The notes beneath the pieces were generated by a model. That model was not told the origin of the DNA. It searched no databases and saw only the letters and a program-made list of their open reading frames with translations. Position numbers and translations under genes: made by a program. From IMG/VR virus record IMGVR_UViG_3300017780_006886, positions 1 through 53,931 of that record: DNA of 53,931 nt. The stretch is one strand, 5' to 3'. Positions 31,978 to 50,494 of the stretch are shown here, one piece after another (the stretch's first letter is position 1; each line of letters starts with the position of its first letter). The stretch is from a virus (lineage: Duplodnaviria; Caudoviricetes).

Positions 31978-34176
31978 ATGAGTTATAACATAATTAAAAC
32001 GGACGGAACACCATTAGCTGTTGTGGCAGATGGTCAAACCAAGCAGGATGCAACAAGTTTGGTCTTGATTGGCAAAAACTACGCAGGTTATGGCACGTTC
32101 CTTAACGAAAACTTTATCAAGCTGCTTGAGAATTTTTCATCTGCAACAGAACCACTGTACCCATTGGTTGGGCAATTATGGTGGAAAAAAGATACTCGTC
32201 TACTAAAAGTATACGATCAATTTGGAACCTGGAAAACCATCAGTGGAGCGCAAAGTCAAAGCGATACACCAACCAATTCTATTGCAGGTGATCTGTGGTT
32301 TGACACAGTCAATCAGCAGTTAAAAACCTATTCAGGCGCCAGTTGGATTGTTATTGGTCCTAGCTTTACTGCTACCACAGGAACCTCGGGCGCTATCGCT
32401 GACACTGTGATTGCAAGTGACCTGTTGCCACACGTGGTAGTTAAATTCTTTGTACAAAATCAGCTGATCGCAATCCTAAGCAAAGATGACACATTTACTC
32501 CAGGAACAACTATCCCTGGATTTAGCACAATCAGGCCTGGCTTCAATCTTGCACGAGATCGTGTTCCATCACTGGTATACTATGATAATGCCAACAATGC
32601 TTCTTATCTTGGCGGCGTATTAGCCAATAGATATGTGCTAAAAACAGCACCTACGCTTGAAGCTAAATTAGTAATCCAAAACGTTGACGGATTAGAAATA
32701 CAAGAAACTGGTGGCACAGTCAGCTACTTTGAAATGAATCAAAGTGGTAGTAACATTAACTTCATTGGTAAACAGCGTGGTCAAGGTTTTGTCTTCAAGA
32801 TGATTCCAGACTCTGGTGGTTTACAGATCAATGCACTAACCATTGACCGTGTTACTGGTCTAGTATCAGTTTCTGCACCTACTCCAGACGCTGGATCTGC
32901 ACTGTTGATAGCCACCAAAGGTTATGTTGATGCTGCTGACGTTGTGCTAAGTGGTTCTATCACATCAGCTGTTAACGCACTTAACAGCACAATTGACACA
33001 TTAGCTACTAATACCACTGTTGCATATGGTAACATTCGTGTTATACAAAGCACACTAGGCATAGGTGGCCCACCTGGAGCAAATACAACACCCTGGACTC
33101 AGCTCACTGTAGGGTCTGGTCAGACCGTTGCTGCCAATATTATATCACTATGGAGCAACGTTGCGTCTATACATGCAAACGTATTAAGCAACACCGGTAC
33201 TGCGCCAGCAAGCACCGCCAGCATGTATTCCAATGTACGATTACTACAAAACGGATTATCCAATCTTAACACCACGGCAATGTTGCGAAACGGTGATTCG
33301 ACCTGGCTTGGTGTTCAGCGGCCTGATGCAACCAATACCTATGACATTGGAACTTCAGGTCTACGTTTTAGAACAATTTATTGTACTGCACTTGATGCGA
33401 GTGGATCTGGTGCGCTAACTATTCCAGTTGGTACTACTGGAAACAGACCAGATCCAGGCGCGACTGGTATGATACGCTACAATACTTCTCTTAGTAGTTT
33501 TGAAGGCTATGCAGCAGCATCATGGCAAAGTCTAGGTGGAGTTAAATCAGTTGATGGATTGACCTATATCATTGCTGAAACCACAGCTGGTGCAAGCAAC
33601 GGCGAATTAGATTTTTATGTTGAACAGACCGGCGGAACCACCAGTGCCAAAGCAGCTGGAGTAAACAAAGATAGATTCCTAATGAGTGTTCCGGTGCAAG
33701 CAACCACACTAACAACCGGAGCAGCTGGCACTGGAGGTACTATTACTGGGACCTGGACCTTGAGTGCTGGGTCAAAGATGCAAGCTACATATTCTGACTT
33801 GGCAGAAAGATTTGCAGCCGACGCAAACTACACCGAAGGTACAGTTGTTGCACTGGGTGGAACAGCTGAAATAACACAGGAAACTGTGGATCTCAGCGAA
33901 AATGTGTTTGGCATCGTGAGTCACAAATATGCATACCTAATGAATGAGGCAGCAGGCGATCATACCACTCATCCTCCTATAGCATTGGTAGGACGAGTAC
34001 CTGTCAGGGTCATTGGTACCGTAACCAAAGGTCAGCGCCTAGTAAGTGCCGGTAATGGATGTGCTCGTGTAGCAGTTGATGGAGAGCTGTCTCCATTTAA
34101 TGTGATTGGCCGTTCGTTAGAAGATAAAACTGATCCAGCCGAGGCATTAATCTTGTGCGTGGTTAAGATCAACTAA
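31978..34176 (+). CDS. Tail fibre/virion protein with a C-terminal intramolecular-chaperone-like domain
   Basis: N-terminus is paralogous to the preceding fibre (LIGKNYAGYG..LNENF..LLENF). Contains GMIRYNT..FEGY. C-terminal YSDLAERF..YTEGTVV..GRVPVRV resembles peptidase G2/IMC-type domains. Confidence 0.75.
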   Translation: MSYNIIKTDGTPLAVVADGQTKQDATSLVLIGKNYAGYGTFLNENFIKLLENFSSATEPLYPLVGQLWWKKDTRLLKVYDQFGTWKTISGAQSQSDTPTNSIAGDLWFDTVNQQLKTYSGASWIVIGPSFTATTGTSGAIADTVIASDLLPHVVVKFFVQNQLIAILSKDDTFTPGTTIPGFSTIRPGFNLARDRVPSLVYYDNANNASYLGGVLANRYVLKTAPTLEAKLVIQNVDGLEIQETGGTVSYFEMNQSGSNINFIGKQRGQGFVFKMIPDSGGLQINALTIDRVTGLVSVSAPTPDAGSALLIATKGYVDAADVVLSGSITSAVNALNSTIDTLATNTTVAYGNIRVIQSTLGIGGPPGANTTPWTQLTVGSGQTVAANIISLWSNVASIHANVLSNTGTAPASTASMYSNVRLLQNGLSNLNTTAMLRNGDSTWLGVQRPDATNTYDIGTSGLRFRTIYCTALDASGSGALTIPVGTTGNRPDPGATGMIRYNTSLSSFEGYAAASWQSLGGVKSVDGLTYIIAETTAGASNGELDFYVEQTGGTTSAKAAGVNKDRFLMSVPVQATTLTTGAAGTGGTITGTWTLSAGSKMQATYSDLAERFAADANYTEGTVVALGGTAEITQETVDLSENVFGIVSHKYAYLMNEAAGDHTTHPPIALVGRVPVRVIGTVTKGQRLVSAGNGCARVAVDGELSPFNVIGRSLEDKTDPAEALILCVVKIN

Positions 34177-34552
34177 TAGTTGACAATATTGCTGAGGCAA
34201 TCAGCAATCCTTTATCGTGGCTTATGCTAATATGACAATGTTTATTGTTAGCATAAGCCACTAATTCATTTGCAAACGTAATAATTGGTTGTCCTAGTCC
34301 CGTCTTACTCAATATCATATTTTTCCAGACCACAGCGTCACGAATTCCGGTGCCAAAACTTTTTGCCACTGCTTCTTTGACCGCCCATGCAGTGGACACA
34401 AATCTTACTTTGTTATGTAAATCGCTAACGGTGGTGTACTCTGCATGTTCTTCAATTGACAGTATACGAGCCGCTACACTATCAAGTCGCTGGCTGTCCA
34501 TATTGTAAAATCTATCAACGTCAACAATATCAATTCCGTGTCCTGTTATCAT
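34169..34552 (-). CDS. acpS: Holo-[acyl-carrier-protein] synthase (4'-phosphopantetheinyl transferase, AcpS type)
   Basis: MITGHGIDIV, WAVKEAVAKSFGTGI, GQP and HISISHD are AcpS signature motifs; 127 aa from the ATG at 34552. Confidence 0.93.
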   Translation of the reverse strand: MITGHGIDIVDVDRFYNMDSQRLDSVAARILSIEEHAEYTTVSDLHNKVRFVSTAWAVKEAVAKSFGTGIRDAVVWKNMILSKTGLGQPIITFANELVAYANNKHCHISISHDKGLLIASAILSTIS

Positions 34553-34556
34553 GACT

Positions 34557-34760
34557 CTATAATTCTTTTGTACTGGTGATATCAAAATTACAGTGACACA
34601 TTGTTTTGTTGCAGATTATTGGTTCTTTTGGGATTTCAAAATCTTCAAATATATTTCCAATCTTGCCACCTACATTACACCACCCTCTGAAAACATCGCC
34701 GGAAAAATATACTGCGATTTGTTCTACTCCTGCATGGCATTTCCACCCACTCCAGTCATA
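34557..34760 (-). pseudogene. Start-less C-terminal SPASM/Twitch fragment of a radical SAM protein
   Basis: Manual translation gives YDWSGWKCHAGVEQIAVYFSGDVFRGWCNVGGKIGNIFEDFEIPKEPIICNKTMCHCNFDITSTKEL*. The pattern C..G...GDV..C...GNI...CxxxxCxC is present. An in-frame TAA lies immediately upstream and there is no suitable start codon. Confidence 0.7.
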
Positions 34761-34830
34761 TTACTTAGTGTATTATTTTTTATATACATTATTTGATTTG
34801 AACTAATTATTGGACAGCTACATAGATAGC

Positions 34831-34838
34831 TATAAATA
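34831..34838 (+). promoter_or_regulatory. T4-like late promoter TATAAATA upstream of the ACP gene
   Basis: Exact match to the T4 late consensus, followed by the RBS AGGAG and the ATG at 34856. Confidence 0.7.
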
Positions 34839-34855
34839 TTCCAGGAGACTCAATC

Positions 34856-35119
34856 ATGCAAACTATCGAAGAAAAATTTATGGAATTGGTTAGCACCGAA
34901 TTCAATAGAAAAAAAATGCCAGACATCACGCTAGACGCCGCTTTTCGGAAAGACCTAGGATTAGACAGTTTAAGTTTAACTGAGTTAATTATTGCCTGCG
35001 AAGAAACATTTGGGGTTGAGATAGATGTTGACCATCCAGCCACTATAGAAGCTAAGACACTTCGTCCTTTGTATGATGCAGTAGTACAGCTTGTTAATCA
35101 GACCGAAGCAGCCAAATAA
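34856..35119 (+). CDS. acpP: Acyl carrier protein
   Basis: 87 aa and acidic, with DLGLDSLSLTELIIACEETFGVEI; Ser38 is the predicted phosphopantetheine site. Divergent from acpS. Confidence 0.92.
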   Translation: MQTIEEKFMELVSTEFNRKKMPDITLDAAFRKDLGLDSLSLTELIIACEETFGVEIDVDHPATIEAKTLRPLYDAVVQLVNQTEAAK

Positions 35120-35876
35120 CCCAACTGGTAGGGTCTAGTTCCCACCAGCGTCTCCCACCAAAGTTGCTGTTACTTGCAACACCATGATGATTGTTATGCC
35201 ATGCTTCTCCCAGTATCAATGGCCACAACCAAATAACATTGATACTGTCGTCTTTGGTTTCATAGTTCCTATACCCTGCCTTGGTCCAATGATTGACACT
35301 GGTATTGATCGCATAACTGTGAAACGCAATGAATGCTGGAAACATCAATCCCCATACCCATACCACAGGACTTAGTGTAAACACAATAGCATGAGTGATC
35401 CAGAATATCGGAAGATAGTACTTGTGTGCAAACACCACATCGAGGTCACGCATAAGATCAACAATGTACTTTGGGCTCAGGCTGTCCTGTTTCATCTTAA
35501 ACATCCAGCCAACATAGCTGTGCCAAAAGCCATGATGTGGGCTATGAGGATCGCGATCGGTATCTGCAAGCCTGTGATGGTAGCCACGATGTATCAGCAC
35601 CCAGTAGATAGGACTTCCTTGGCCACTCATTATCGCACACCAGATCATAAAACACTTGCGCAGTCTTCCTGTTTTAAAACTACGATGGCTTAATAGTCTA
35701 TGATAACATGCACTAAGTCCTACCATCATCAACAGGATGTATCCTATGATAGAATATATCCACCAGTGGTCCGGAGCAGTTGTAAACACAGCATAAATGC
35801 CAGCCAGCTGTATAGGTAACCAGCCTCCCCACATAGGCGCCCAAAATTTTACACGTTCGATTATTTGCGTGACCAT
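35094..35876 (-). CDS. Membrane fatty-acid desaturase (delta-9/DesC-like), copy 1
   Basis: Three His boxes (HRLLSH, HRGYHH, HNNHH), DPHSP, WWELD and hydrophobic segments. Probable start is the ATG at 35876. Confidence 0.9.
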   Translation of the reverse strand: MVTQIIERVKFWAPMWGGWLPIQLAGIYAVFTTAPDHWWIYSIIGYILLMMVGLSACYHRLLSHRSFKTGRLRKCFMIWCAIMSGQGSPIYWVLIHRGYHHRLADTDRDPHSPHHGFWHSYVGWMFKMKQDSLSPKYIVDLMRDLDVVFAHKYYLPIFWITHAIVFTLSPVVWVWGLMFPAFIAFHSYAINTSVNHWTKAGYRNYETKDDSINVIWLWPLILGEAWHNNHHGVASNSNFGGRRWWELDPTSWVIWLLRSD

Positions 35877-36406
35877 TGTTCTAGTAGTTCCTCGTTGCCT
35901 TGATATATTATACGCTGCCAACAACTGTCATCTGTTGGATTGTTGCATACCAGATACTTATGCCCATCGAATTTAAAGTCGTGGATCTCGTTTTTTTCAA
36001 GCTGTTCTACAGTCCACTTTTGCCAAAATTTTGCTTCTCTGCTGATAAATAGCAAATCACATCTTTCATTTTCGTGTAGCCAGTTGATCTGTGATCGCAA
36101 TAGCTCAACCCCTACCAGATTGTAATCTTTAATTGGACTGGCAATATGGTTAACTGACCAAAATCTATTAACCACTCTGTATGTATGATCGGGCCAGCAA
36201 TCTCGTTTCAATATGCTTCCACAAAAATAAGGCATCCAATTTTCATCAAATGCAATAGTGAGTGCAGCACATTCATTGATAAAATGATCTTTATTGTAAT
36301 TTTTTGACAGCGGGTGTTCATGATCTCTATACTGACGTTCCCTCAGATGATCAAACAACGGATCAAATAGTGTATCGGTTCCGGTCCGCCAGGTTATTGC
36401 ATGCAT
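35861..36406 (-). CDS. Hypothetical protein (possibly GNAT-like fold)
   Basis: 181-aa ORF coupled to desaturase 1. The fold guess rests only on size and the alpha/beta pattern. Confidence 0.5.
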   Translation of the reverse strand: MHAITWRTGTDTLFDPLFDHLRERQYRDHEHPLSKNYNKDHFINECAALTIAFDENWMPYFCGSILKRDCWPDHTYRVVNRFWSVNHIASPIKDYNLVGVELLRSQINWLHENERCDLLFISREAKFWQKWTVEQLEKNEIHDFKFDGHKYLVCNNPTDDSCWQRIIYQGNEELLEQWSRK

Positions 36407-36418
36407 GATTTTAATACC

Positions 36419-37327
36419 TTAATAATATATGCGATCAATTGGATCAAGTTGGACTTGGCCGTAATTAATGCCATTATTAGCTTCTACTAATCTTTTTTCT
36501 AGTTCTAGTATTTGAGGTAAAATATTTTCCATACCCCAGCTTTTACGTCTAACAATCAGCTCAGGGTAGATTTCTCTGTAGCCATGTATCTTGGATGATT
36601 CTTTACCTAGTTTACCGTAGATCTTATTAGCCAATAGATCATTCCACCACACAGTCTTTGTGATAGATTTCAACAACCTATGATTCCAGCGAAAGAAGTC
36701 TGTAACAGCTGGTCTATTTTGTTTTAACAAATACTTTGCACAACCGTAGTCTGCTTCAATCTCAACATTGCACCACATGTGAGGACGTCCGTCATATGGG
36801 TAAGGTCTACGCATGATACATGCATCTCCGTTACCAGCAATCGGAAGTCCGTCAATTTTGTCAACTACTGCACAGACCACAAGCTGTGACGGATAGGTCA
36901 TTTCTGCATTCTTGCTGTAGTCAAATATTTCACTTTCAAAGAACTTAACGTGATCAAAGTCAATGATCTTATAAGGGATGCCTAGGTTTTCACACAGGAT
37001 CACAGCATGGCTAACATCGTATATATTTAAATCATTTGCCAGGCGAGTTATGTAGATATCATAAGGAACCTTGGCTTCTACAAATGCACGTACCATGAGT
37101 TCGCTTTCAGACCCACCACTCAGCATCAGACTAAATTTTTCATTGGGATAGGTATCACGCACACTGTGACACGCTCTGATCAGTTCTGTTCTTAGATCGT
37201 CTGGGGGTGTGGGGTCAAGATCAAAATCAACATTGAAAATTTGGTCTGCAGATGTTCGGTATATTTGAGTAGGATCGTCATCATAGTACCAGCGTTGCCA
37301 ATTGTTTTCAAGATATTGATACATCAT
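36419..37327 (-). CDS. PP-loop/adenine-nucleotide alpha-hydrolase-like protein
   Basis: LMLSGGSESELM is a variant of SGGxDS; also CENLGIPYKIID and IAGNGD. Confidence 0.6.
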   Translation of the reverse strand: MMYQYLENNWQRWYYDDDPTQIYRTSADQIFNVDFDLDPTPPDDLRTELIRACHSVRDTYPNEKFSLMLSGGSESELMVRAFVEAKVPYDIYITRLANDLNIYDVSHAVILCENLGIPYKIIDFDHVKFFESEIFDYSKNAEMTYPSQLVVCAVVDKIDGLPIAGNGDACIMRRPYPYDGRPHMWCNVEIEADYGCAKYLLKQNRPAVTDFFRWNHRLLKSITKTVWWNDLLANKIYGKLGKESSKIHGYREIYPELIVRRKSWGMENILPQILELEKRLVEANNGINYGQVQLDPIDRIYY

Positions 37328-38166
37328 GCTTTTTTTATTTTGTTGTTCTTGACCCAGTTACCAAAGTGTATGCAATGATCCTCGTATTGATTCATGGCTT
37401 TCATCAATGGAAAGTAATCGCCTTTTTGTAACTCAGCTGTGGCTACATCTTCTTTGAACACTGCATCCAGTGTTTCAAAAATCATTCGTTCGTTGGGGCC
37501 TACAGATGGGTCATAGTAAAACTGCGTGATCCATTTAAATCCGTATTCGGTATTGATGTCGTCTGGTATAACAGTGTTGACCATGACACAACCTGGGCTT
37601 CCATATTCTACAAATGTAAAGGGAAATATATAAAGCCACCAGCCGTGTGGGTGTTGTTGTAATATCCACCCATCACCTTGATCTGTAACAATATCTTTTA
37701 AATCAACTTGAGAGGATAAGAACGGATGTATTCCGCCTTTGTACACATGCAGTAAATCGGCTTCTGCGTCCATGAGCCATAGCCAGCTGCCTTTGCTTTC
37801 GCCTTGCACAGAATGACTATATTCTAATGCTGTTTCTTTTGCTAGATCTTTAACCCACATGTGGTCTGGTTCTTCAAAATTTTTAAAAACAAGTCCGCTT
37901 TTACCAATCTTGGCTTCACCGCAGGATAGTTTTTTAGTATTGTTAATTGGTACACCATGTTGATCCCACTGAAATCCATGAAATTTGCAAGTTATCTCTT
38001 TGACAAATTCGCCCGTTGAGTGTAGCGGATACATTCTATGAGGGCAAAATCTATGAAATAGATTGGCTTCGTTGTTGTTGACATTTAGAATATATTCGGG
38101 CAATACAAAGTTTCCATTTTTTGAAGCTGCCACATGAGCAAATATTTTTGGAGAGTTTATGAACAC
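37324..38166 (-). CDS. Rieske [2Fe-2S] non-heme iron oxygenase, alpha-subunit-like
   Basis: CPHR...CKFHG are Rieske ligands; EADLLH....IH and a distal ED form the mononuclear-iron motif. GTG start with RBS AAAGGA. Confidence 0.85.
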   Translation of the reverse strand: MFINSPKIFAHVAASKNGNFVLPEYILNVNNNEANLFHRFCPHRMYPLHSTGEFVKEITCKFHGFQWDQHGVPINNTKKLSCGEAKIGKSGLVFKNFEEPDHMWVKDLAKETALEYSHSVQGESKGSWLWLMDAEADLLHVYKGGIHPFLSSQVDLKDIVTDQGDGWILQQHPHGWWLYIFPFTFVEYGSPGCVMVNTVIPDDINTEYGFKWITQFYYDPSVGPNERMIFETLDAVFKEDVATAELQKGDYFPLMKAMNQYEDHCIHFGNWVKNNKIKKA

Positions 38167-38187
38167 GCTGTATCCTTTCGAGGAAAA

Positions 38188-38231
38188 TATTTAGCAGTAA
38201 CAACAAGCTCGCCGAAGATTTATGCTAAATA
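38188..38231. promoter_or_regulatory. Back-to-back late-promoter motifs GCTAAATA (minus 38188-38195; plus 38224-38231)
   Basis: Identical octamers on opposite strands within a 90-bp divergent intergenic gap. Confidence 0.6.
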
Positions 38232-38255
38232 CCTAGTCACTAATGGAGATACTAG

Positions 38256-38738
38256 ATGTCGAACTACCTACATATAATATGGTTAGAAAACTACACAATG
38301 CCGGATGTGTGTAATGCTACAGTTGAATCAAATCGTCAACTGCTCAAAGAAACAGAAATCTACAAAACAGCAGACGATGGCGTCAAATCTCTAGTTGACG
38401 AATATCTTGTGCATGATGCGATCAAAGGCGCATATTTTTATAGAGAAGGCAAAGTATACAAGTACGAAAGTCCGGACGGAAAGCAATTACTTTGCCAGAC
38501 TATATTTCCTCCTCCAGTATGGAACAACGAACGCAATGATCCAACACTAGACTCAGAGTACCATGAATTTTTGCGAGCCGCTGTATATTGCGACTTGTTT
38601 GGGGTTGTTGAATATGGGATATCTGACCTTGTGCCCGAAGAAGAATCAGAACCGCAAGCGTTTGGGTCATTCGAAACAGGATATGCAGAGCTACTTAGAA
38701 TAATTAAAAAATGGAACGCACCACCGTTACCTTTTTAA
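38256..38738 (+). CDS. Hypothetical acidic protein
   Basis: 160-aa ORF with RBS GGAG and an upstream TAAATA; no recognisable motif. Confidence 0.65.
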   Translation: MSNYLHIIWLENYTMPDVCNATVESNRQLLKETEIYKTADDGVKSLVDEYLVHDAIKGAYFYREGKVYKYESPDGKQLLCQTIFPPPVWNNERNDPTLDSEYHEFLRAAVYCDLFGVVEYGISDLVPEEESEPQAFGSFETGYAELLRIIKKWNAPPLPF

Positions 38739-40214
38739 TTTTTTGTTGACATAGTTTTTTGTTTTATCAATTGCGATTGAATCATCAGGAAGTGTATTAA
38801 CTCGATCCTCAATGGGCCCGTTAAAATTCAGTCCCGACAGCATCCAGTTGCAAGGTTTAAACTGTAATTCTTTGTGTGTTTTTTCGTACTCTTGATTAAC
38901 GAGATATGCATCAAACACAGTCATGTTTTCATTCTTCCAACGTAGTACTTCGGATCCTCGGGTATATTTTTCCCATTCATAATATCCTTTAACCACTGCT
39001 GGGTCATACCGTTCAGTATCAGACTGAGTTATCTCTTCATATTTAAATTTTGAATATTCAGTGCTCAGTTTTGATTTGATATCAAGTTCGCCTGTTGGGA
39101 TACCAAGTACATAATGATAAAACGCTTGATCTTGCCAGTTGTCAACTAACCACTGGCGTGTGTGTTCTAGTGTTTGAACTGTTTCATGCGGCAACCCCAG
39201 GATTAAACTGATAGTGGCTCTAAACACTTTTCTGTTTGTAGTTAGATAATATTTTTTAAGATCCAAAATTCCTTGTTTAAGTTTTTCTGGATCCATGCCT
39301 TTGCCTACGGATTTTCCGCTTTGGTGGTTGAATGTTTCAAGTCCATAGTACTGTCCAAGAAAGTTCATTCTTAGCAATTCTTCTTTTTCCTGCGGCCTGG
39401 CTACCAGTAGGTCAGCACGTATAAAGCCACTGAACGTGGGAACAAAATCCAGTTCCTCTACTGCATTAGCATACTTGGTGATTTTTTCTGTTGAGTCGTT
39501 AAAAGTTTCGTCGGACACCGTATAGTTTTTTACACCAAATCTATCATACGCATCTCTAGTCTGATATAAAAAACTATCACTACTCCTGGTGTGGTCGGCC
39601 TTTACTCCTATAATAGGAAAATCGCAAAAAGTACAAGAAAATTTACATCCCCTAGAAAACTCAATTCCCAACCATTCGTCTTCCAATATGTAATCTCTAT
39701 CTTCGTATATGATAGATAAATCTGCCATTGGGTATGCTGGATAGAATGTATTTGCTGGTATTATCTTGTCACGCCCTATTAGAAATTTAGGACGTGGTCC
39801 GTTACTATACAAATACTGCAACAGAGTAATAATACCGTTTTCCCCGAACCCTTGCACATGATAGTCTATTAGATTAGAATCACTGCGATAGTTTGTAAGT
39901 GAGCTTGGTTTTAGATTCGAAGCTGACCCACTGATGATTTGTATATGTGGATATTGTTCTTTAATCCAGGTGCAAATTGATTGCAATTGGGAACTCCATC
40001 CAAGAAAAAGAAAACTCAACCCAATAAATTTTGTATCTGGAGTGATACGCGATTTAAAAAATTCTTGTAGGTCAGAGTGTTCCCAAAAATAAAAATAATC
40101 AAGTACTTCAACATCCCAGTTGTTTTGTCTAAGTATATGCGCAATTCTATATGCTCCCGGCAATCTTCCTGCATACAGTGTAGTAGAAACGTTGATTATT
40201 ATGGAATGCGGCAT
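38727..40214 (-). CDS. Radical SAM protein with a B12-binding-like N-terminal domain, copy 1
   Basis: EFSRGCKFSCTFC (CxxxCxxC), DETFND, GLETFN and ILGLPHET; Rossmann-like N-terminal region. Likely start is the ATG at 40214. Confidence 0.85.
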   Translation of the reverse strand: MPHSIIINVSTTLYAGRLPGAYRIAHILRQNNWDVEVLDYFYFWEHSDLQEFFKSRITPDTKFIGLSFLFLGWSSQLQSICTWIKEQYPHIQIISGSASNLKPSSLTNYRSDSNLIDYHVQGFGENGIITLLQYLYSNGPRPKFLIGRDKIIPANTFYPAYPMADLSIIYEDRDYILEDEWLGIEFSRGCKFSCTFCDFPIIGVKADHTRSSDSFLYQTRDAYDRFGVKNYTVSDETFNDSTEKITKYANAVEELDFVPTFSGFIRADLLVARPQEKEELLRMNFLGQYYGLETFNHQSGKSVGKGMDPEKLKQGILDLKKYYLTTNRKVFRATISLILGLPHETVQTLEHTRQWLVDNWQDQAFYHYVLGIPTGELDIKSKLSTEYSKFKYEEITQSDTERYDPAVVKGYYEWEKYTRGSEVLRWKNENMTVFDAYLVNQEYEKTHKELQFKPCNWMLSGLNFNGPIEDRVNTLPDDSIAIDKTKNYVNKKLKR

Positions 40215-40224
40215 AGTGAGCAAT

Positions 40225-40259
40225 TATTTATAGGATGCATGTGGTTTGCCTTATAAATA
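40225..40259. promoter_or_regulatory. Back-to-back TATAAATA late promoters (minus 40225-40232; plus 40252-40259)
   Basis: Two perfect T4-late consensus octamers pointing divergently at radical SAM 1 and desaturase 2. Confidence 0.72.
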
Positions 40260-40284
40260 TGCATAACAGAGGATTTAATCTAAC

Positions 40285-41112
40285 ATGTTTAAAAATTTTA
40301 GCACCAAAAACATTAGCCTTTACTCTTGGTTTAGCTTTATTCCGTTTGTGGTTGCTGTTCCAGTGATAGTGTTTCTTTTTGCCGTGGGGATCATCCCAGC
40401 AGTGTACCTATGGGCAACAATGATAGGATGGATACTGATCAGCGGACTAGGAATAGCCACTGGTTACCACAGGATATTTTGTCATAAGACACATCCTAAC
40501 CTACCGAGATGGAAAGAAAACATTATTTTGTTTTGTGGTGCACTAGGTGGACAAGGGTCAAGTATTACTTGGACAGCAATACACCGCGGATATCATCACA
40601 GGTATGCAGATACTGAAAAAGACTTGCATTCTCCAATCCACGGCTTTTGGCATTCATTTTTTGGATGGACATTGGCTGTGACTGAAAAATCTCAAATTAT
40701 AAAACTAAATTCTGCTACTGATCTACTGCGTAAATCAAATCACATATGGTTTCACAATCGTCAACTCAGGATACAATGGCTGGTTCCAATCTTATTAGCT
40801 ATCGTGAATTGGCAGCTGGCATTAGCATTGGTTGTGCTACCAACTGGTATATCAATATTGCAAGACAATCTAGTAAACTACTTCGCACATCGTAAATCGT
40901 TGATTGGCTACCGCTACGGAGAAACAAAAGATCAAAGTTATAACAACCTGATACTGGGTCTGATCGGATGGGGCCAAGGATGGCATCATGGACATCACCT
41001 AAAACCTAATTCATTTAATCCTGGTTCAGCTGTGAGTGGGTACTGGTGGGAAATAGACACTTGTGTTATATTTCTTCCATTCATTGGGAAACCACGCCCG
41101 GAGGCGCAATGA
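40285..41112 (+). CDS. Membrane fatty-acid desaturase, copy 2
   Basis: His boxes HRIFCH, HRGYHH and HHGHH; DLHSP; WWEID; hydrophobic segments. Confidence 0.9.
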   Translation: MFKNFSTKNISLYSWFSFIPFVVAVPVIVFLFAVGIIPAVYLWATMIGWILISGLGIATGYHRIFCHKTHPNLPRWKENIILFCGALGGQGSSITWTAIHRGYHHRYADTEKDLHSPIHGFWHSFFGWTLAVTEKSQIIKLNSATDLLRKSNHIWFHNRQLRIQWLVPILLAIVNWQLALALVVLPTGISILQDNLVNYFAHRKSLIGYRYGETKDQSYNNLILGLIGWGQGWHHGHHLKPNSFNPGSAVSGYWWEIDTCVIFLPFIGKPRPEAQ

Positions 41113-42311
41113 TACGTAGGCTGACACCAGCTGATGCATCATTATATCATGACCACCTGCACAGGGTAGCTGATAACAAAGGCTGGTTTTATTCGTCCCC
41201 GTTGCCAGGAGATCCAACCCATTGGCTAGAAAAAGATTGGGTACACATATGGGCCAGGTTTGATACGAATGGCAATATCACACAATCCATGCGTGTTCAC
41301 ATAAACATTAAGCATATTCCAGAAGCTTTAATAGTAAATTATCAAAGCGAACTTCCGGGATTGTTTAATCCAGCCAGAGACATGTTGCCTATACTGGATG
41401 TTGTAATGACCTATTTTGAAAACATGGGCGTATACAATTTCATTCTTGTTAGGAAATTTGGCTTCTTTGAATGGCGAAAGAATAAATTTTTTGAAGATGT
41501 TCCTCCACTAAACAGATATAACTGCTATATAGACGAAGTTGTATCAGCTGGTTGTGCGTCTAACTATAGTGCGCATCGATTTTTTGCTTTTGATGAAATA
41601 TATCCTGTTGACACCAGCGTGGTTAATATGTCGTTGAAACAAGAGCTTAGAAGTTACCAAGGAAAAAAAGTTTTCCCAGACACAAAAGAGATGCATAAGA
41701 GATTGCAAAATAAACAATCATTCTGTATAATTGGCTACAATCCAGCAAGTCAAAAACTTGGCAATGCATTGGTAGCTAATCTAGTGAGTCACAATGTGAC
41801 TACCATCGGCAAGGATAACTTTGATTTCTCTCTAGAGAATTGGAATGCCGCACTCGGGACTCGTCTTGCTGGACTTGGTACACCATTGGTTATTATCATA
41901 AACTTATTTGATCACAATAGGATGTCCTTGCAACAAGAAATATTTGATCTAGTTTGGAAAGAATACAAAAACAATGCAGATGTGCATATTGTAGTGCTTG
42001 GCTCATTTGCACATCACCTCGACGAAGAAAACTTCATATCAAAAGAGTATTTTACTGCTAAAAAAATGTTAAGCAACACCTGCTTTCAGCGAGTGACCAA
42101 GACAGCATTTAAATGTAAATTACTATTGGTTGAGCCAGCTGTTATAGAGTCTTATCTTATTGAGCACACACCAGACTGGACTGTGTATTATTTGACCACT
42201 GACGAGGCAGCTAAAAAAATACTTGAGCTGATAGAAATTAATTCACAGTTCTTATCGGCTGCTATTGCTGGTTCGCATTTATACACGCCCAACAACGGAG
42301 ATTCTATATAA
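41109..42311 (+). CDS. Two-domain protein: GNAT-like N-half plus SDR-like C-half (start corrected to 41109)
   Basis: ATGA overlap with the desaturase 2 stop. The N-terminus MIRRLTPADA is typical of GNATs. The C-half has IVVLGS, YFTAK (YxxxK) and LLLVEPAVIES as in SDRs, with a degenerate glycine motif. Confidence 0.5.
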   Translation: MIRRLTPADASLYHDHLHRVADNKGWFYSSPLPGDPTHWLEKDWVHIWARFDTNGNITQSMRVHINIKHIPEALIVNYQSELPGLFNPARDMLPILDVVMTYFENMGVYNFILVRKFGFFEWRKNKFFEDVPPLNRYNCYIDEVVSAGCASNYSAHRFFAFDEIYPVDTSVVNMSLKQELRSYQGKKVFPDTKEMHKRLQNKQSFCIIGYNPASQKLGNALVANLVSHNVTTIGKDNFDFSLENWNAALGTRLAGLGTPLVIIINLFDHNRMSLQQEIFDLVWKEYKNNADVHIVVLGSFAHHLDEENFISKEYFTAKKMLSNTCFQRVTKTAFKCKLLLVEPAVIESYLIEHTPDWTVYYLTTDEAAKKILELIEINSQFLSAAIAGSHLYTPNNGDSI

Positions 42312-43963
42312 TGGCTGACGCAGTTATTTTTGGTGGCTATAATCATGTCTGGTTTGCAACAAAGCCGGCCGGCGCACATGTCATTGCAAGTACTTTTAGA
42401 GACATGGGCATGACAGCAGTGGTTGTGGATCATGTGTTTGCGATCTCTATGTATTCTCCGTACTGGATGAGTGAAATTATTAAAAAATTTATTGACAAAG
42501 ATACAAAATTTATATGCTTGTCCACTACATTGCTTGGTCCTGTAACAGCAGGCGTATCATCAATGAGTGAGTGTGATAATTTGTTCGAGCCTATCATGAA
42601 TGAAATCAAAGCAATAGCACCACAGGCTGTTTTTGTGGTTGGTGGACCATTTATGGCCATGGAGCAAGAAACCAGATTGCCATTTGATTACAAAGTCAAA
42701 GGACAAGGAGAAGTCTGTATACGAGCAATCGCAGCCAAAGTTATATCGGGGCACGAACTAATACTAGATGATGATGGTTATGTAAGTGATAAAATTTATG
42801 ACTATGGTACCTTCAATGAAGATGCTTCTTTAATTTTTACCAAGGATGATGCAATACTCAAAAACGAAACACTTCCAATTGAGTTTGCTAGAGGGTGCGT
42901 GTTTAAATGCGCCTACTGTGATTATGCGCTAACCGGAAAAAACTTTGGTGACTTCAATAAATCAGAAGAAGTTATGTACGCTACACTGATGTCAAACTAT
43001 GAAAAGTTTGGTACTACTAACTATGTGGCCTCCGATGATACGCTGAATGACAGCGAAGAAAAAGTTGATCAATTGCTAAAGGTATCTAAACGATTGCCAT
43101 TCCAATTGCAATTTGGTGCATATCTTCGATCAGAGCTACTGGAAAAACATCCTGACATGGCCGCAAAATTGCTGGATGCTGGGCTTCGTGGTGCAAATAT
43201 TGGAATAGAAACCTTGAACAAAAAAGCAGGATCTACAGTCGGAAAAGGCTACGGCATGAAAGCAGTTGACACACTGTTAAAAGCCAGGGATACCTGGAAC
43301 GGAGCTGTATCAGTCAACGCCAATCTAATTCTAGGATTACCATATGATACAGTAGAAGATCTTAAGATCCAGAACGACATATTTCTTAATAATGACTTAT
43401 GCGACTTCCTTTTCTACAGTAGATTAGGTATACCTAAGAAAAATAAAGGAACTGGCGCATCTTTATTCTCTGAGGGTAGCTGGGGAAAGTATTATAAAGA
43501 AATGGATCCTACCAGTTCCAAATATGCACAATTATTAGAACACTATAAAGATGACGCATTTGAGTTATACTGGATAGATAGATCCATCGTGTGGGAAAGA
43601 AAAGAGGATGGGTTTGATTATCTAGACGCAATACTGCTAATAGACAGATTTAATAATGACTGGTACAAAACGCACGATCGTTTAATAAATCATTTAGGAT
43701 CATTCAATGCGGTGCAATTACTGTCGGATTTTTCAATGGATGAACTCAGAGCTTACCCGTTTGAAAAATGGTCACAGCCTGACGTTACAGGGATTAATAG
43801 ATTTCATGCGCATGGGATAAAAAAAGTAGTAGAGTACCGCAAACTACTGATGTCAGACAAGATATCAGTTCCTAGTACCACTACACCTTTGTATCTAGAT
43901 CCAGTGCCGCCGACATATATGCCATTCCAATCAAAGATTAAAATACATGTGGCTAAAGATTAA
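42311..43963 (+). CDS. Radical SAM protein with a B12-binding-like N-terminal domain, copy 2
   Basis: EFARGCVFKCAYC, DDTLND, GIETLN, ILGLPYDT and VVGG; paralogous to 38727-40214. Confidence 0.85.
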   Translation: MADAVIFGGYNHVWFATKPAGAHVIASTFRDMGMTAVVVDHVFAISMYSPYWMSEIIKKFIDKDTKFICLSTTLLGPVTAGVSSMSECDNLFEPIMNEIKAIAPQAVFVVGGPFMAMEQETRLPFDYKVKGQGEVCIRAIAAKVISGHELILDDDGYVSDKIYDYGTFNEDASLIFTKDDAILKNETLPIEFARGCVFKCAYCDYALTGKNFGDFNKSEEVMYATLMSNYEKFGTTNYVASDDTLNDSEEKVDQLLKVSKRLPFQLQFGAYLRSELLEKHPDMAAKLLDAGLRGANIGIETLNKKAGSTVGKGYGMKAVDTLLKARDTWNGAVSVNANLILGLPYDTVEDLKIQNDIFLNNDLCDFLFYSRLGIPKKNKGTGASLFSEGSWGKYYKEMDPTSSKYAQLLEHYKDDAFELYWIDRSIVWERKEDGFDYLDAILLIDRFNNDWYKTHDRLINHLGSFNAVQLLSDFSMDELRAYPFEKWSQPDVTGINRFHAHGIKKVVEYRKLLMSDKISVPSTTTPLYLDPVPPTYMPFQSKIKIHVAKD

Positions 43964-44499
43964 GCGGCGCAGATAACAAGGTGTATTCTCTCGGTCATCC
44001 CGCCGTTGTATACAAAATGCTCTAGTCGAGTATCAACCTTATAAAAGATTCCGTTAGCAGGAACATGCTGACAAAATGCCATTCCTGTATTTTTACTAAC
44101 ACATACATAGCTAAACGGGTTGGTTGTTAACACATAGTGAAATCTAACGTTAGAATCTGTATGCACAGTTAGTCCAGTTTTTGGAGGTAGGCGCATGTAT
44201 CTGACCCTGCCAACATCAAATCGTTGTTGTTCGGCTAATGCAATGATTTGATTTTTTGTATACTCTGGGATACCTTGGTTCCAGTTAGAAAATTCTGCTT
44301 CCTGTGCTAGATATACATTGTTATCGTAATCATAAAAACTACCTACAGCATCAAGCCACTCATCTTCTGCACCAGTGCGGTGCCGTAGTGCAATTTGATT
44401 ACTGTTAGCCCATGGATGCAAGGCCAGCACAGTTTCTAAATCTGCAATCATTTGATTGTGGTCAGCTTGGAATTTAATTTGTTTAATGAATACGCTCAT
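43960..44499 (-). CDS. 2OG-Fe(II) oxygenase (Asp/Asn beta-hydroxylase-like)
   Basis: HTD (HxD), a distal His in EHFVYNGG and Arg in ERIHLV. Confidence 0.75.
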   Translation of the reverse strand: MSVFIKQIKFQADHNQMIADLETVLALHPWANSNQIALRHRTGAEDEWLDAVGSFYDYDNNVYLAQEAEFSNWNQGIPEYTKNQIIALAEQQRFDVGRVRYMRLPPKTGLTVHTDSNVRFHYVLTTNPFSYVCVSKNTGMAFCQHVPANGIFYKVDTRLEHFVYNGGMTERIHLVICAA

Positions 44500-44503
44500 G
44501 TTA

Positions 44504-45058
44504 TTATTTAATACCGATCAACATATAGCGAGTGAACTTCCACCCTGGGTACTCAAAAGGTAGTTTGCCTTTGTAGACCATTTGGCTCAGCTGATACTGA
44601 TAACAAAATGTATCAAGATCGTCAACAATACCCACATGGTCGTCGTGTGGCATGTTGTTGCTCTGTAGCACAACACGAGTGCCTGTTGGTATATTCTCCC
44701 ACCATTGAGTGTTATCAAAGTGTTCTGTTGATGTGTTGATGATCAAGTCTGCATCGGTAATCAGATTATTGCAATCGGCTGTGTTGGCTTTAAACTTCCA
44801 ATCTTGCCATACCCAGTTTTCGTTTATCATGTCGGCAACAGGTTCACAGGCAGGGTCTTGATCGTAACTGCGTATCTTTTCAACTTCGAATCGGCCCCTG
44901 CTCAGTAACAAAAATGCAGTAACCGCAAGCCAGCCTCCGTATATAGCAGTCTCACGACTGGTCCACTCAGTGCGTTCCAGCTCTTCACACAGCCATATCT
45001 TGCTGCCAATTTGTCCGCTACTAAAAGCGTCTTGGTGAATGTTAAAATGTTTGGTCAT
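44504..45058 (-). CDS. Class I SAM-dependent methyltransferase-like protein
   Basis: AIYGGW, RSYDQD and LIINTSTEH; ATGA overlap with the upstream radical SAM gene. Confidence 0.6.
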   Translation of the reverse strand: MTKHFNIHQDAFSSGQIGSKIWLCEELERTEWTSRETAIYGGWLAVTAFLLLSRGRFEVEKIRSYDQDPACEPVADMINENWVWQDWKFKANTADCNNLITDADLIINTSTEHFDNTQWWENIPTGTRVVLQSNNMPHDDHVGIVDDLDTFCYQYQLSQMVYKGKLPFEYPGWKFTRYMLIGIK

Positions 45059-46419
45059 GATTTTTCGCAAAGAGTATAAAAATCTTTCATTTTAGGAAAT
45101 GTTTCTAAAAAGTTAGTGCCACGTCGACGATCGTGCTCGTCAACAAATACTTTAAAATCTCTACGAAACATATCCAGTTGTGGCATTGGATCGGTTAACC
45201 TAGATTCAAAGTACTCTAGAATTCTTTCAATTTTATGTAGTTCCCAGTCGCCAAATGTATTGTTACGGTGCAGTATTTTAACATAATTTAATTGTTGTTG
45301 TATGTAGATTAAATAATCAGCTGGTAGGATATCAATTGACATCATTTTTGGATTTGCCATATACACTGTGTCGACTATCACCCTGTTATTAAACGTTTTC
45401 TTTAACTGCACCATGTCTATTAGGAAATTAACATAGGATGTTACACTCATTGCATTGTAGGTACTCATTAAACTTACTCTTGCATCCGGCACCTGTGTTA
45501 AAAACAACTTGCAATTATCTAACCATTCATTGTAGTCCATCCCGTTACGTATATATTCTGCGTGTGCGCCATGTGCTTCGCAACTGGTGTACAGCACAAA
45601 TGATTTTATTGCTTTTGCTTCTAGCATGATTTTTACTTTTTCAGTGAAACGTTGTATGAGCACAGGCGGTACACACATATTACTGTTGACAGCTAGGTCT
45701 AGATCTGGCCGTGGGTTTGCAATTATCCAATCAAATACTTTAAACGTATGGGGACTCAATAATGGTTCACCACCGGTGATTCGAATTTTTTTAAGGTGAG
45801 GGTAAGAGTCCGGCCACCATTGCCAGAATGCATCTATGTATGGATTGGGATCACGGTCCGGAATAGGCATTTTTCCGCTACGAGAAATTTGCTGTAGCGT
45901 GATCAACGGAAATTCAGTTGGATATGACCCATGTTCTTTTAGCTCTTTCATCCAGCTACTGCTCACATCCGCACTGCAATAGCTACATTTAAAATTACAA
46001 GTGGTGCTAAAACTAACTTCCATATCGGTGGGGTAAGGATTTGCATTCCACCCAGCAGATACCAAGTCTTCAAGTTCTGCCATTGGGTACCCTGCACTTT
46101 TAAGCACACGATCAGAAAACACATCCTTACTGTTCACTGTGTCTTCGATGTTCCAGCAGTAACGACATTCTCTTGGTCTACGCTTCTCTAGCATTTCTCT
46201 ACGCTGATATTTCTTGTGACGAGAATTGTGCAAAGATCCTGGATTTTCCAGTTCGTCGAGTTGAGTCTGGTGGGTAGCAGGATGATGGCAACTGTGATTG
46301 TGACCATTTTCTAGATGTAGAGTAACCTGATGCCATTTGGCCATGCACATGCCTGGCCCCACTGCGTCAAGTTTTTCTTTTACTGATCGATAAAAAGTTA
46401 GTGCGTGTTCAGTCGTCAT
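45055..46419 (-). CDS. Radical SAM protein with an N-terminal Twitch/SPASM-like domain
   Basis: CMAKW..HSCHH..ECRYCW auxiliary Cys cluster; CNFKCSYC; ITGGEPLL. Confidence 0.88.
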   Translation of the reverse strand: MTTEHALTFYRSVKEKLDAVGPGMCMAKWHQVTLHLENGHNHSCHHPATHQTQLDELENPGSLHNSRHKKYQRREMLEKRRPRECRYCWNIEDTVNSKDVFSDRVLKSAGYPMAELEDLVSAGWNANPYPTDMEVSFSTTCNFKCSYCSADVSSSWMKELKEHGSYPTEFPLITLQQISRSGKMPIPDRDPNPYIDAFWQWWPDSYPHLKKIRITGGEPLLSPHTFKVFDWIIANPRPDLDLAVNSNMCVPPVLIQRFTEKVKIMLEAKAIKSFVLYTSCEAHGAHAEYIRNGMDYNEWLDNCKLFLTQVPDARVSLMSTYNAMSVTSYVNFLIDMVQLKKTFNNRVIVDTVYMANPKMMSIDILPADYLIYIQQQLNYVKILHRNNTFGDWELHKIERILEYFESRLTDPMPQLDMFRRDFKVFVDEHDRRRGTNFLETFPKMKDFYTLCEKS

Positions 46420-50153: not shown

Positions 50154-50494
50154 AGTTTAATCATGGCCTTTACTGATCTTTGTCTGCGTAGCTCAGTGTA
50201 TTCTGTACCAAATTGTTCAGCTGCCAGATTATACGCAGCAACAGCCTGTGCGATAAAGTCCGTGACATCAAGTATCTGCACAGGTGTTTGATTGCGATCC
50301 AGCACCCAGATCGTGTTGCTGGATTGATTTCGTAGCTGTAGTCCTGCCAGGAATTCTGGAGTGATATCAAATTGCCCACCGTTGTGGGCCAGCACACATG
50401 CATCCTGGAATGTTACTTCCAGCAGTTCTCTTTGTTGTTTGAATTGAGTGCGGAGATCCGCCCATTCTAGAATAGTATCAAGTTGTTCAGCCAT
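50150..50494 (-). CDS. Hypothetical protein
   Basis: 114 aa; strong RBS AGGAGG; ATGA overlap with the downstream glycosyltransferase. Confidence 0.75.
   Translation of the reverse strand: MAEQLDTILEWADLRTQFKQQRELLEVTFQDACVLAHNGGQFDITPEFLAGLQLRNQSSNTIWVLDRNQTPVQILDVTDFIAQAVAAYNLAAEQFGTEYTELRRQRSVKAMIKL

Follow-up and report, generated by a model that had tools for sequence, protein, structure and literature searches.

In bacteria, the thiotemplated polyyne and alkyne pathways (cay/pgn) comprise a fatty acyl-AMP ligase, an acyl carrier protein (ACP) dedicated to the pathway, a desaturase triad and a thioesterase, and desaturation proceeds on the ACP, as far as the excerpted text of PMC9828172 describes them. 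On the phage side, the excerpted text of PMC8224337 cites the lipid desaturases of cyanophages (Roitman et al. 2018) and describes acpP-fabF-fabG auxiliary genes in Rhodobacteraceae prophages, and that of PMC13291599 a phage ACP for which binding to host FabZ is predicted. Clusters of jumbo cyanophages with glycosyltransferases, 2-oxoglutarate (2OG) oxygenases, cupins and methylases were described by Iyer et al. 2021 and read as capsule decoration or secondary metabolism (PMC7824862, excerpted text). The present analysis concerns an island of genes at positions 34169-46419 of the viral record IMGVR_UViG_3300017780_006886, a stretch of 53,931 bp that represents the entire IMG/VR record and is called the window throughout; its class is that of a linear fragment, and its completeness about 9%. 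The island encodes an ACP, the phosphopantetheinyl transferase (PPTase) AcpS, two membrane desaturases, a PP-loop synthetase, radical S-adenosylmethionine (SAM) enzymes, oxygenases and a GNAT-type protein fused to a short-chain dehydrogenase/reductase (SDR). Its closest comparison is G001, a complete phage genome of 354,959 bp with terminal repeats.

With the polyyne pathways the island shares a dedicated ACP beside several membrane desaturases, as well as chains that would be taken from primary metabolism instead of being built by a ketosynthase. It differs from them in having no acyl-AMP ligase among the open reading frames (ORFs) of the window or in G001, in that no PF00975 thioesterase was found, and in adding its own AcpS, a PP-loop synthetase, B12-type radical SAM enzymes, Rieske and cupin oxygenases and the GNAT-SDR protein. 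This pathway class is the closest working analogue of the island; as the ligase is lacking and no thioesterase was found, the island is not counted as a member of it. The single phage desaturases are likewise phage-encoded membrane fatty-acid desaturases, taken to change host lipids during infection, but none of them is accompanied by a carrier protein, a PPTase or further enzymes for tailoring. The ACPs of prophages and phages are similarly tied to host fatty-acid metabolism; the prophage genes, however, copy a host fab operon, whereas the island has no Fab genes, its ACP scores below the AcpP cut-off, and it brings its own AcpS and tailoring enzymes. The jumbo cyanophage clusters resemble it as variable multi-enzyme sets that mix glycosyltransferases with oxygenases, but they are centred on sugars and amino acids, and the excerpted text of PMC7824862 contains none of the terms desaturase, acyl carrier or phosphopantethein.

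Among the papers listed for jumbo and huge phages, phage ACPs, PPTases, desaturases and radical SAM auxiliary genes, none, a paper on an aquatic jumbo-phage lineage included, described such an island, although the supplementary tables of surveys may list such genes. The lipid auxiliary genes known from phages to date are lone desaturases or copies of fab genes. The present phage has a carrier protein together with the enzyme that activates it and a dozen enzymes for tailoring, a set conserved across diverged jumbo phages. The finding itself is real, conserved and unusual, and the mechanism proposed for it below is plausible.

Carrier protein, activating enzyme and desaturases

The ORFs of the island were scanned against Pfam, PHROGs and NCBIfam, and folds were predicted for the proteins without a family (Table 1). 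All island genes are intact, and the catalytic motifs are conserved, namely the ACP serine, the His boxes of the desaturases, the cysteines of the radical SAM enzymes and the PP-loop. Twelve gene kinds had been named in an earlier note on this DNA, made from the sequence alone; eleven of them are firmly backed by profile or fold matches, while the methyltransferase is only faintly supported. The position directly after the tail fibres, which was claimed as well, is confirmed by two genes that belong to PHROG tail-fibre families.

Table 1. Features of the island and of its flanks (bits are followed by the family cut-off)
Feature	Position	Strand	Basis
Tail-fibre gene TF1	29269-31941	+	PHROG tail-fibre family; upstream of island
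Tail-fibre gene TF2	31978-34176	+	PHROG tail-fibre family; directly upstream of island
AcpS, holo-ACP synthase (group I PPTase)	34169-34585	-	TIGR00516 84.2 bits (59.8); PF01648 47.2 (25)
ACP, 87 amino acids (aa)	34856-35119	+	PF00550 40.6 (20.8); Ser38 in DLGLDSL
Des1, SCD/DesC-type membrane acyl desaturase	35094-35924	-	PF00487 47.9 (29.7); human SCD1 (4zyo) E 8.3e-20
181-aa protein, no family	35861-36406	-	no Pfam, NCBIfam or PHROG match
PP-loop ATP-pyrophosphatase, 302 aa	36419-37327	-	invariant SGGSES; AsnB-like synthetase fold, no Pfam match
Rieske [2Fe-2S] protein, 280 aa	37324-38166	-	PF00355 32.3 (20.3); CPH...CKFH
160-aa ORF, no family	38256-38738	+	no Pfam, NCBIfam or PHROG match
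B12-type (class B-like) radical SAM 1	38727-40223	-	PF04055 43.8 (29.5); CKFSCTFC
Des2, second SCD-type membrane desaturase	40285-41112	+	PF00487 54.6 (29.7); His boxes intact
GNAT/SDR fusion, 400 aa	41109-42311	+	fold level only; no Pfam match; ATG 41109
B12-type radical SAM 2	42311-43963	+	PF04055 42.4 (29.5); TIGR04072 65 (360)
AspH/LpxO-family cupin	43960-44499	-	PF05118 23.2 (22.6, borderline); HTD...H motif
188-aa protein (o44504), weakly class-I methyltransferase-like	44504-45070	-	profile vs PDB 3mgg E 0.025; unconfirmed
Twitch-domain radical SAM, first gene of a separately conserved module	45055-46419	-	NF033640 304.9 (170)
Remainder of the flanking module	46409-53931	-	534-aa two-repeat protein, 181-aa ORF, two GT8-like, 114-aa ORF, 750-aa protein, epimerase
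GT8-like glycosyltransferase and paralogue	48539-49339, 49332-50153	-	o48539 family profile vs glycogenin-1 E 3.2e-7, profile positions 4-105 (covers DxD region)
NAD-dependent sugar epimerase, cut by window end	end of window	-	PF01370 E 9.5e-36

The likely start of AcpS is the ATG at 34552, the position at which the alignment with the G001 orthologue (51% identity) begins. Among GenBank phage proteins only three short unannotated Listeria/Staphylococcus records are similar to it (28-30% identity), and these are probably host-derived; a scan of bacterial genomes gave two weak loci, which are uninformative on the host. The ACP gene lies opposite a spurious 78-aa ORF. Residues D33, L34, G35, D37, S38 and L39 are invariant among six phage ACPs, and the phage protein fails the equivalog of the housekeeping AcpP, TIGR00517, with 46.0 bits against a cut-off of 70.45. 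The genes of ACP and Des1 are convergent, their 3' ends overlapping by 26 bp (35094-35119), an arrangement that is kept in G001 (L060:16861-16883), and an ACP gene directly adjoins a desaturase gene in the window, in G001 and in the contigs L143 and L185. The spacer of 270 bp between AcpS and ACP contains no remnant of the extra desaturase that G001 carries. A predicted complex of Des1 with the ACP scored 0.03 against a mark of 0.32, a value obtained without controls and uninformative either way.

The likely start of Des1 is the ATG at 35876. Across 21 phage sequences, the His boxes of the desaturases, HRxxxH, HRxxHH and WHNNHH (H59/H64, H96/H100/H101 and H227/H230/H231), are invariant. The two window proteins score 55 and 28 bits on the DesA equivalog NF049918, which has a cut-off of 400, and so allow no assignment to a subfamily, and the matches of Des1 in GenBank phages, Pelagibacter phage Mosig and Acinetobacter phage MD-2021a, are just 29-30% identical. 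The number of desaturase copies per related locus ranges from 0 (13 loci) to 9, the latter in L185, where nine desaturase-like matches are packed into about 13 kb (L185:7929-20731) together with Rieske, AcpS, ACP and B12-type radical SAM genes.

Of 80 bacterial loci, 2 have their ACP gene immediately upstream of a desaturase of the closest bacterial type, which is followed by an acyl-reductase-like gene. In the actinobacterial L080:7495-11558 and L088:7477-11564 the ACP and an SCD-like desaturase are accompanied by a protein of 860-880 aa with a C-terminal acyl-reductase (NAD_binding_4) domain. As in the phage, the ACP gene adjoins an SCD-like desaturase gene, the product of which is about 35% identical to Des1; these loci differ in being bacterial, and genes for a PPTase, a PP-loop protein or a radical SAM enzyme are missing from their surroundings. 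To our knowledge, operons of the L080/L088 type are functionally uncharacterised; they offer a genomic precedent for ACP-coupled desaturases of the SCD-like type.

Conservation of the island and of a viral PP-loop and desaturase module

G001 was found through the locus of its twitch-domain radical SAM protein (L007), the closest of 51 viral loci, and every window protein was compared by tblastn with 60 kb of this genome. The order in G001 begins with a giant ORF (57%), TF1, TF2 (65%), AcpS (51%), a desaturase, the ACP (52%), the orthologue of Des1 (52%), the 181-aa ORF (57%) and the PP-loop gene (53%). It continues with a differing stretch of 6 kb, a B12-type radical SAM gene, two desaturases, the o44504-like gene (66%), the twitch-domain radical SAM gene (65%), the glycosyltransferase module and the epimerase (76%). 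In the differing stretch Pfam recognises a FabG-like SDR and an FA_hydroxylase as well as a QueC-like PP-loop protein, and several ORFs there have no family; a Rieske protein, an AspH-type cupin and a GNAT-SDR fusion are absent from it. The G001 island thereby comprises an ACP and four desaturases, that of the window an ACP and two. L143, a contig of 71 kb, shows the arrangement of G001, and the island proteins of the window are 50-80% identical to those of these relatives. The expectation that the genes would co-occur in related phages was thus confirmed, since directly behind the same tail fibres G001 and L143 both have AcpS, ACP and desaturases, together with the 181-aa ORF, the PP-loop gene, a B12-type radical SAM gene, the o44504-like gene and the twitch-domain radical SAM gene. 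The gene set recurs in synteny across independent assemblies, which is more than chance.

An assembly chimera of phage and host DNA, which had been named as a possible refutation, could be suspected from gene kinds that are typical of bacteria and from the fragmentary state of the window. Yet the junctions between TF2 and AcpS and between the o44504-like and the twitch-domain radical SAM gene recur in the complete 355-kb genome and in a separate contig, both from other assemblies. The GC content of the island (0.38-0.41) is within the range of the remaining window and even across the junctions, near-identical copies of single island proteins occur on other contigs, and the single-pattern scan of species-representative bacterial genomes described below gave no confirmed relative of the PP-loop protein, although one homologue is present in L075, a contig placed in an archaeal bin. 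The chimera is therefore rejected, with next to no probability left to it.

The PP-loop protein deserves particular attention, as it links the island to a much larger set of viral loci. Its AlphaFold2 (AF2) model is of high quality (predicted local distance difference test, pLDDT, 93.4), and in the VIA structure comparison it reached Z values of 15.4 with AsnB (1ct9), 15.2 with human ASNS, 14.4 with beta-lactam synthetase (1jgt) and 12.6 with carbapenam synthetase (1q15) over about 255 residues; other PP-loop enzymes reach at most 9.5 against the same model. With these synthetases the phage protein shares the fold of the synthetase domain and the PP-loop motif, in which S70, G71, G72, S75 and E76 are invariant in the alignment of the family. 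It differs from them by the absence of the N-terminal Ntn (N-terminal nucleophile) glutaminase, since it has 302 residues compared with about 500 in the matched chains and begins with MMYQ, without a Cys after the Met. It furthermore stays below the Pfam Asn_synthase family (neither Asn_synthase nor TIGR01536 matched, and only NAD_synthase appeared, at E 0.17 and 0.038), and it belongs to a large viral family of its own that is often fused to GNAT domains. By analogy with the synthetases, the motif implies adenylation of a carboxylate, followed by formation of an amide.

There are 29 close homologues of the PP-loop protein, and a profile of the family retrieved 1474 representative relatives (E <=1e-3) among 1.84 billion sequences, most of them about 300 aa long. 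The family is almost confined to viral contigs. Single-sequence scans of viral data with the PP-loop protein and with radical SAM 2 returned nothing, and an alignment-based scan was needed for the former. The pattern derived from the PP-loop profile gave 17 matches in species-representative bacterial genomes, none of which was confirmed, a result obtained with one pattern of low sensitivity. L075, a contig of 12.7 kb from a bin labelled Nitrososphaerales archaeon, carries a 41% identical homologue together with two desaturase genes; the contig is probably viral DNA that was binned with an archaeon. A GNAT domain is fused to the PP-loop relatives in 6 of 16 long forms scanned, at either end, and in one further weak case. 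These fusions argue for one substrate that PP-loop enzyme and GNAT acyltransferase would share. Examples are P0068, P0078, P0164, P0157, P0108 and P0172, and forms of about 660 aa hold tandem copies.

The alignment scan confirmed 137 viral relatives of the PP-loop protein, and the neighbours of the best 80 of these 137 loci were counted within 10 kb by tblastn with the proteins of the window and of G001 (E <=1e-3); dereplication at 90% identity reduced the 80 loci to 51 clusters. Desaturases stand beside the PP-loop gene in 67/80 loci and 43/51 clusters. Lower counts were obtained for FA_hydroxylase (33/80 and 22/51), B12-type radical SAM enzymes (25/80 and 19/51), o44504-like proteins (34/80 and 19/51), AspH-like proteins (22/80 and 9/51), Rieske proteins (10/80 and 7/51), SDR proteins (10/80 and 7/51) and tail fibres (7/80 and 4/51). 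On comparable contigs taken as a control, a desaturase was present in 2/51 loci of the twitch-domain radical SAM protein (Fisher p ~5e-21, only indicative, as the loci are not independent), and FA_desaturase was found in each of five near-complete related genomes of 335-453 kb that include G001. The PP-loop synthetase and its desaturases form the conserved core, a widespread and fast-changing viral module. The Rieske gene is the best-conserved neighbour of the PP-loop gene, the start of which is overlapped by its end over 4 bp in the window: orthologues of 56-65% identity adjoin the PP-loop gene in eight loci where the PP-loop proteins themselves are only about 27-33% identical, and a homologue of 39% is present in two further loci.

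Phage ACP and AcpS, on the other hand, are a rare accessory layer and not part of the core. The cluster had been named after them in the earlier note; ACP occurs in 4-5/51 and AcpS in 3/51 dereplicated clusters, far fewer than have a desaturase. The location in the tail module, also proposed before, holds for the window, G001 and L143, in the last two of which tail-fibre orthologues occupy the same position, but is a trait of this lineage, given the few clusters with tail fibres within 10 kb.

A survey of the five near-complete genomes for enzymes that would make, load or release acyl chains was largely negative. Ketosynthase (PF00109) was found in 0/5; AMP-binding (PF00501) in 1/5 (G004), with none in G001 or among the window ORFs; PlsC acyltransferase (PF01553) in 0/5, with no Lpx- or PlsC-type acyltransferase among the window ORFs; and thioesterase (PF00975) in 0/5, although other hydrolase families and unassigned ORFs may still hold one. 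Since G001 yielded neither a ketosynthase nor an AMP-ligase, and neither a PlsC acyltransferase nor a thioesterase, the chains would have to come from the host. The earlier note had suspected such a host origin from the window alone, and the suspicion is strengthened by the near-complete relatives. The electrons are probably supplied by the host as well. In the G004 genome (345 kb), the AMP-binding gene (C1:221869-222711) lies about 17 kb from the PP-loop/desaturase island and an ACP gene (323523-323720) about 63 kb away.

Within 3.5 kb of the PP-loop homologues in 51 representative loci, 344 ORFs were left unexplained, and the nearest 150 were scanned, with the result that 43 received a Pfam family (E <=0.001) and 107 none. 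Recurrent families were cytidylyltransferase-like (6), AspH (6), GNAT (5), DUF2061 (5), UDP-sugar dehydrogenase (4) and TctC (4), and 13 singletons included TauD, a Rieske ring-hydroxylase, a cupin and a rubrerythrin. The neighbourhood of the PP-loop gene mixes lipid-type, oxygenase and sugar-nucleotide genes. The DUF2061 membrane proteins stand beside PP-loop homologues in L157, L158, L165, L166 and L175, and TctC-like periplasmic binding proteins do so in L167, L177, L181 and L186.

A possible acyl-tailoring pathway and its alternatives

Taken together, the genes suggest a lipid-tailoring island of a jumbo myovirus, fed by acyl chains of the host, the products of which would be amide-linked to an acceptor in the envelope or to a small molecule; this reading, which accounts for more of the evidence than its rivals do, is held tentatively, its probability coming close to an even chance without reaching it. 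The sequence of events may be pictured as follows. The phage AcpS would turn apo-ACP into holo-ACP at Ser38, whereupon host fatty-acid synthesis would load and extend chains on the phage carrier, phages without an ACP drawing instead on acyl-ACP or acyl-CoA of the host. The two SCD-type di-iron desaturases would insert double bonds, the B12-type radical SAM enzymes might methylate or otherwise functionalise unactivated carbons, and the Rieske and AspH-type oxygenases would hydroxylate. The GNAT domain of the fusion protein, perhaps joined by the 181-aa ORF, would then transfer the acyl group to an amine, and the AsnB-like PP-loop synthetase would adenylate a carboxylate and close a second amide bond. 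As product one may envisage a decorated lipid or glycolipid of N-acyl or amide-linked type that alters the envelope of the infected cell, or else a small molecule. ACP and AcpS would be an optional upgrade that reduces dependence on the host carrier, within an island that is modular and subject to quick turnover. If the genes do act together, these phages make specialised lipids or lipoamides of their own, a new class of virus-encoded metabolites; a large unannotated family of viral enzymes would gain a function, and new desaturase and radical SAM chemistries might be expected.

Several points weigh against this pathway. What the sequences establish are gene identities, motif conservation, synteny and co-occurrence, whereas the chemical steps and the acceptor are inferred. 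Desaturases of the SCD/DesC type are known to use acyl-CoA or membrane lipids as substrates, which makes an ACP-bound one unnecessary. In a hidden Markov model (HMM) search, an ACP was present within 10 kb in just 9/136 viral loci (6 of them strong) and AcpS in 3/136; in the five near-complete genomes PP-binding occurs in three, in two of these far from the island, and ACPS in one (G001). Since the ACP is missing from most PP-loop/desaturase loci, the core chemistry would need no phage ACP. As a potential electron donor, Fer2 ferredoxin was found in 0/5 of these genomes. The named equivalogs of B12-type radical SAM enzymes (ladderane-type lipid, PhpK, HpnJ/HpnR and RiPP, i.e. ribosomally synthesised and post-translationally modified peptide, methylases) are not reached, the best scores being 54-65 bits against cut-offs of 282-775, and the matches to the lipid families among them thus lie far under their marks. 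The GNAT/SDR fusion is rare, with only 10 homologues, and is missing from G001. The sugar-nucleotide genes among the PP-loop neighbours and the flanking GT8 genes suggest that the substrate of the PP-loop enzyme may be a sugar acid and not a lipid. Finally, the genes stand on both strands in several small units, and their content is very different between relatives, which is compatible as well with a hot spot of accessory genes that are unrelated to one another.

A bolder version of the pathway would have some jumbo phages carry a self-sufficient carrier-protein line (PPTase, ACP, desaturases, B12-type radical SAM enzymes and the pair of GNAT and AsnB-like proteins) that during infection converts acyl chains of the host into a specialised polyunsaturated or branched lipoamide or glycolipid, to serve as signal, toxin or new envelope component. 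It is thought unlikely, if not remotely so; were it true, it would be the first carrier-protein-dependent, natural-product-like lipid pathway in a bacteriophage, and the PP-loop synthetases would form a large virus-specific enzyme family with new chemistry. In the opposite direction, the region may be a hot spot of independent auxiliary genes, in which desaturases act directly on host phospholipids, as the single desaturases of cyanophages do, ACP and AcpS no more than boost host fatty-acid synthesis, and the radical SAM, Rieske, cupin and PP-loop genes serve separate ends, a possibility that we consider rather unlikely yet worth taking seriously. It accords with the mixed orientation of the genes, with the strong variation in content among the window, G001, L185 and other loci, with the absence of ACP and AcpS from most loci, and with the 45% identical homologues of radical SAM 1 that occur in five viral loci without any other island gene. 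Phage ACPs and single phage desaturases have, moreover, already been reported as auxiliary metabolic genes, as far as the excerpted texts of PMC8224337 and PMC13291599 go. A mere hot spot is, however, difficult to reconcile with a link between PP-loop and desaturase genes that lies far above the control (67/80 against 2/51 loci, with 43/51 after dereplication), with the ACP directly adjoining a desaturase in four lineages, and with the recurrence of FA_hydroxylase, B12-type radical SAM, AspH and o44504-like genes round the PP-loop gene in many unrelated loci. A phage merely in want of more fatty acid would in addition be expected to carry Fab genes, whereas no ketosynthase was seen in the five genomes.

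If attention is turned to the acceptor, the island and its flank of glycosyltransferases and epimerase could together remodel a surface glycan or a glycolipid of the lipopolysaccharide (LPS) type on the host, for superinfection exclusion or to avoid adsorption to debris. The PP-loop protein would in that case be an amidotransferase of sugar acids or N-acetyl sugars, the GNAT domain a sugar N-acyltransferase, and desaturases, hydroxylases and ACP would alter chains of the lipid A type. GT8-like transferases and an epimerase do adjoin the island, the 150 scanned neighbours include UDP-sugar dehydrogenases and cytidylyltransferase-like proteins, LpxO, which hydroxylates lipid A, is a member of the AspH family, and acyl-ACP is the substrate of lipid A acyltransferases. 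On the other hand, acyltransferases of the Lpx or PlsC type are missing from the window ORFs, as is PF01553 from the five genomes, and the glycosyltransferase module is kept in about 40 loci without lipid genes, so that the modules can work apart; the idea also presumes a host that makes LPS. Glycan remodelling of this kind is therefore looked upon as rather improbable, even though clusters of glycosyltransferases, 2OG oxygenases and cupins in jumbo cyanophages were read as capsule modification or secondary metabolism in the excerpted text of PMC7824862.

Proteins offer another conceivable target, and distinctly improbable, in our estimate, is a scheme in which the enzymes act on a protein of the virion, for instance the adjacent fibres, or on a RiPP-like peptide, to give a lipidated protein. 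The B12-type radical SAM enzymes would C-methylate, the AspH-type enzyme hydroxylate Asp or Asn, the AsnB-like protein form isopeptides, and the GNAT domain attach the acyl group borne by the ACP. Transfer of ACP-bound acyl chains to RiPPs by GNAT enzymes is known, and the AspH family is named after peptide hydroxylation. The island adjoins tail fibres in the window, G001 and L143, and models of RiPP C-methyltransferases (TIGR03975 at E 2.6e-10; ApyD) are among the NCBIfam matches of the B12-type radical SAM enzymes, but the scores of these models are as far under the cut-offs as those of the lipid models, and tail fibres lie within 10 kb in just 4/51 PP-loop clusters. No precursor peptide or protease was seen, and several membrane desaturases together with FA_hydroxylase point to lipids.

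Remaining island genes, flanks and origin of the window

All three radical SAM proteins carry CxxxCxxC. In NCBIfam, radical SAM 1 comes closest to TIGR04072 (lipid biosynthesis B12/rSAM, 54 bits), to PhpK and to HpnJ, though it falls far short of each cut-off, and no GenBank phage protein matched it. For the B12-binding domain PF02310, radical SAM 2 scores 28.7, under the cut-off of 32.1, and radical SAM 1 gave no match; the TIGR04072 alignments extend into the N-terminal part. The Rieske protein, for which the cluster-binding motif alone aligns with sequences of the PDB, is probably an oxygenase, and the AspH-type cupin a probable Fe(II)/2-oxoglutarate hydroxylase.

The GNAT/SDR fusion was modelled by AF2 with a pLDDT of 72. 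Top Foldseek matches of its N-terminal half are GNAT acetyltransferases (E 4e-6 to 8e-5, TMt 0.55-0.70), and residues 200-392 adopt an SDR fold (Z 16.1 to 3gem over 175 residues, VIA), in which the YxxxK motif (Y314, K318) is nearly invariant and the glycine-rich nucleotide motif degenerate. A BLASTP comparison links the protein to the SDR of G001 at E 2e-5; the values from ESM Atlas, 0.75-0.76, were too low for use.

The 181-aa ORF at 35861-36406 occurs in this data set only beside the AcpS/ACP set, with orthologues in G001 and L143, and none of its 16 homologues has a Pfam domain. An assignment as GNAT is a lead only: ESM Atlas features relate it to GNAT clusters at 0.95-0.96, but PDB profiles and hhalign comparisons with the GNAT-SDR and GNAT/PP-loop fusions were negative (probabilities <=0.2). 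The 160-aa ORF found no tblastn homologue in the fetched loci, at E <=1e-4 or at 1e-3. In the family of o44504, the protein behind the proposed methyltransferase, Methyltransf_25 matches 4/19 members, the best at E 0.006. The gene accompanies both modules, standing beside the twitch-domain radical SAM gene in seven loci and near the PP-loop gene in those counted above.

The twitch-domain radical SAM protein had been counted as part of the acyl-tailoring set; it belongs instead to a separate and widely conserved glycosyltransferase module, which spans 45055-53023 on the minus strand. Its relatives comprise the 51 viral loci mentioned above, L007-L057, and a 40% identical homologue in Ralstonia phage RsoM2USA, the sole GenBank phage match, where each of the 33 features nearby carries the label hypothetical; among PDB sequences it found no match. 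According to tblastn among 56 loci, o46409 is present in 40, o48539 in 39 and o49332 in 40, and in about 40 of the 56 loci and in RsoM2USA the module follows tail fibres without lipid genes. Its 534-aa protein is built of two repeats with DxD-like motifs, and a PDB search with the N-terminal half gave no match; the 750-aa protein is a probable structural protein. The flanking module may glycosylate the fibres or the host surface.

As regards the origin of the window, its left half carries T4-like baseplate genes (gp5-like, gp25 and gp6-like proteins). Counterparts of the gp6-like protein in the jumbo phages Phosso, Atu_ph07 and PA5oct share 34-36% identity with it, and each of 127 matching records lies below 60%, so that the window stems from a jumbo myovirus without a close cultured relative; a megablast search of the island against 50,697 GenBank phage records returned no match. 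Between the baseplate and tail-fibre genes lies a single ORF of 6282 aa (8692-27540, plus strand) with a match to FG-GAP repeats, whose orthologue in G001 is the giant ORF named above, about 57% identical.

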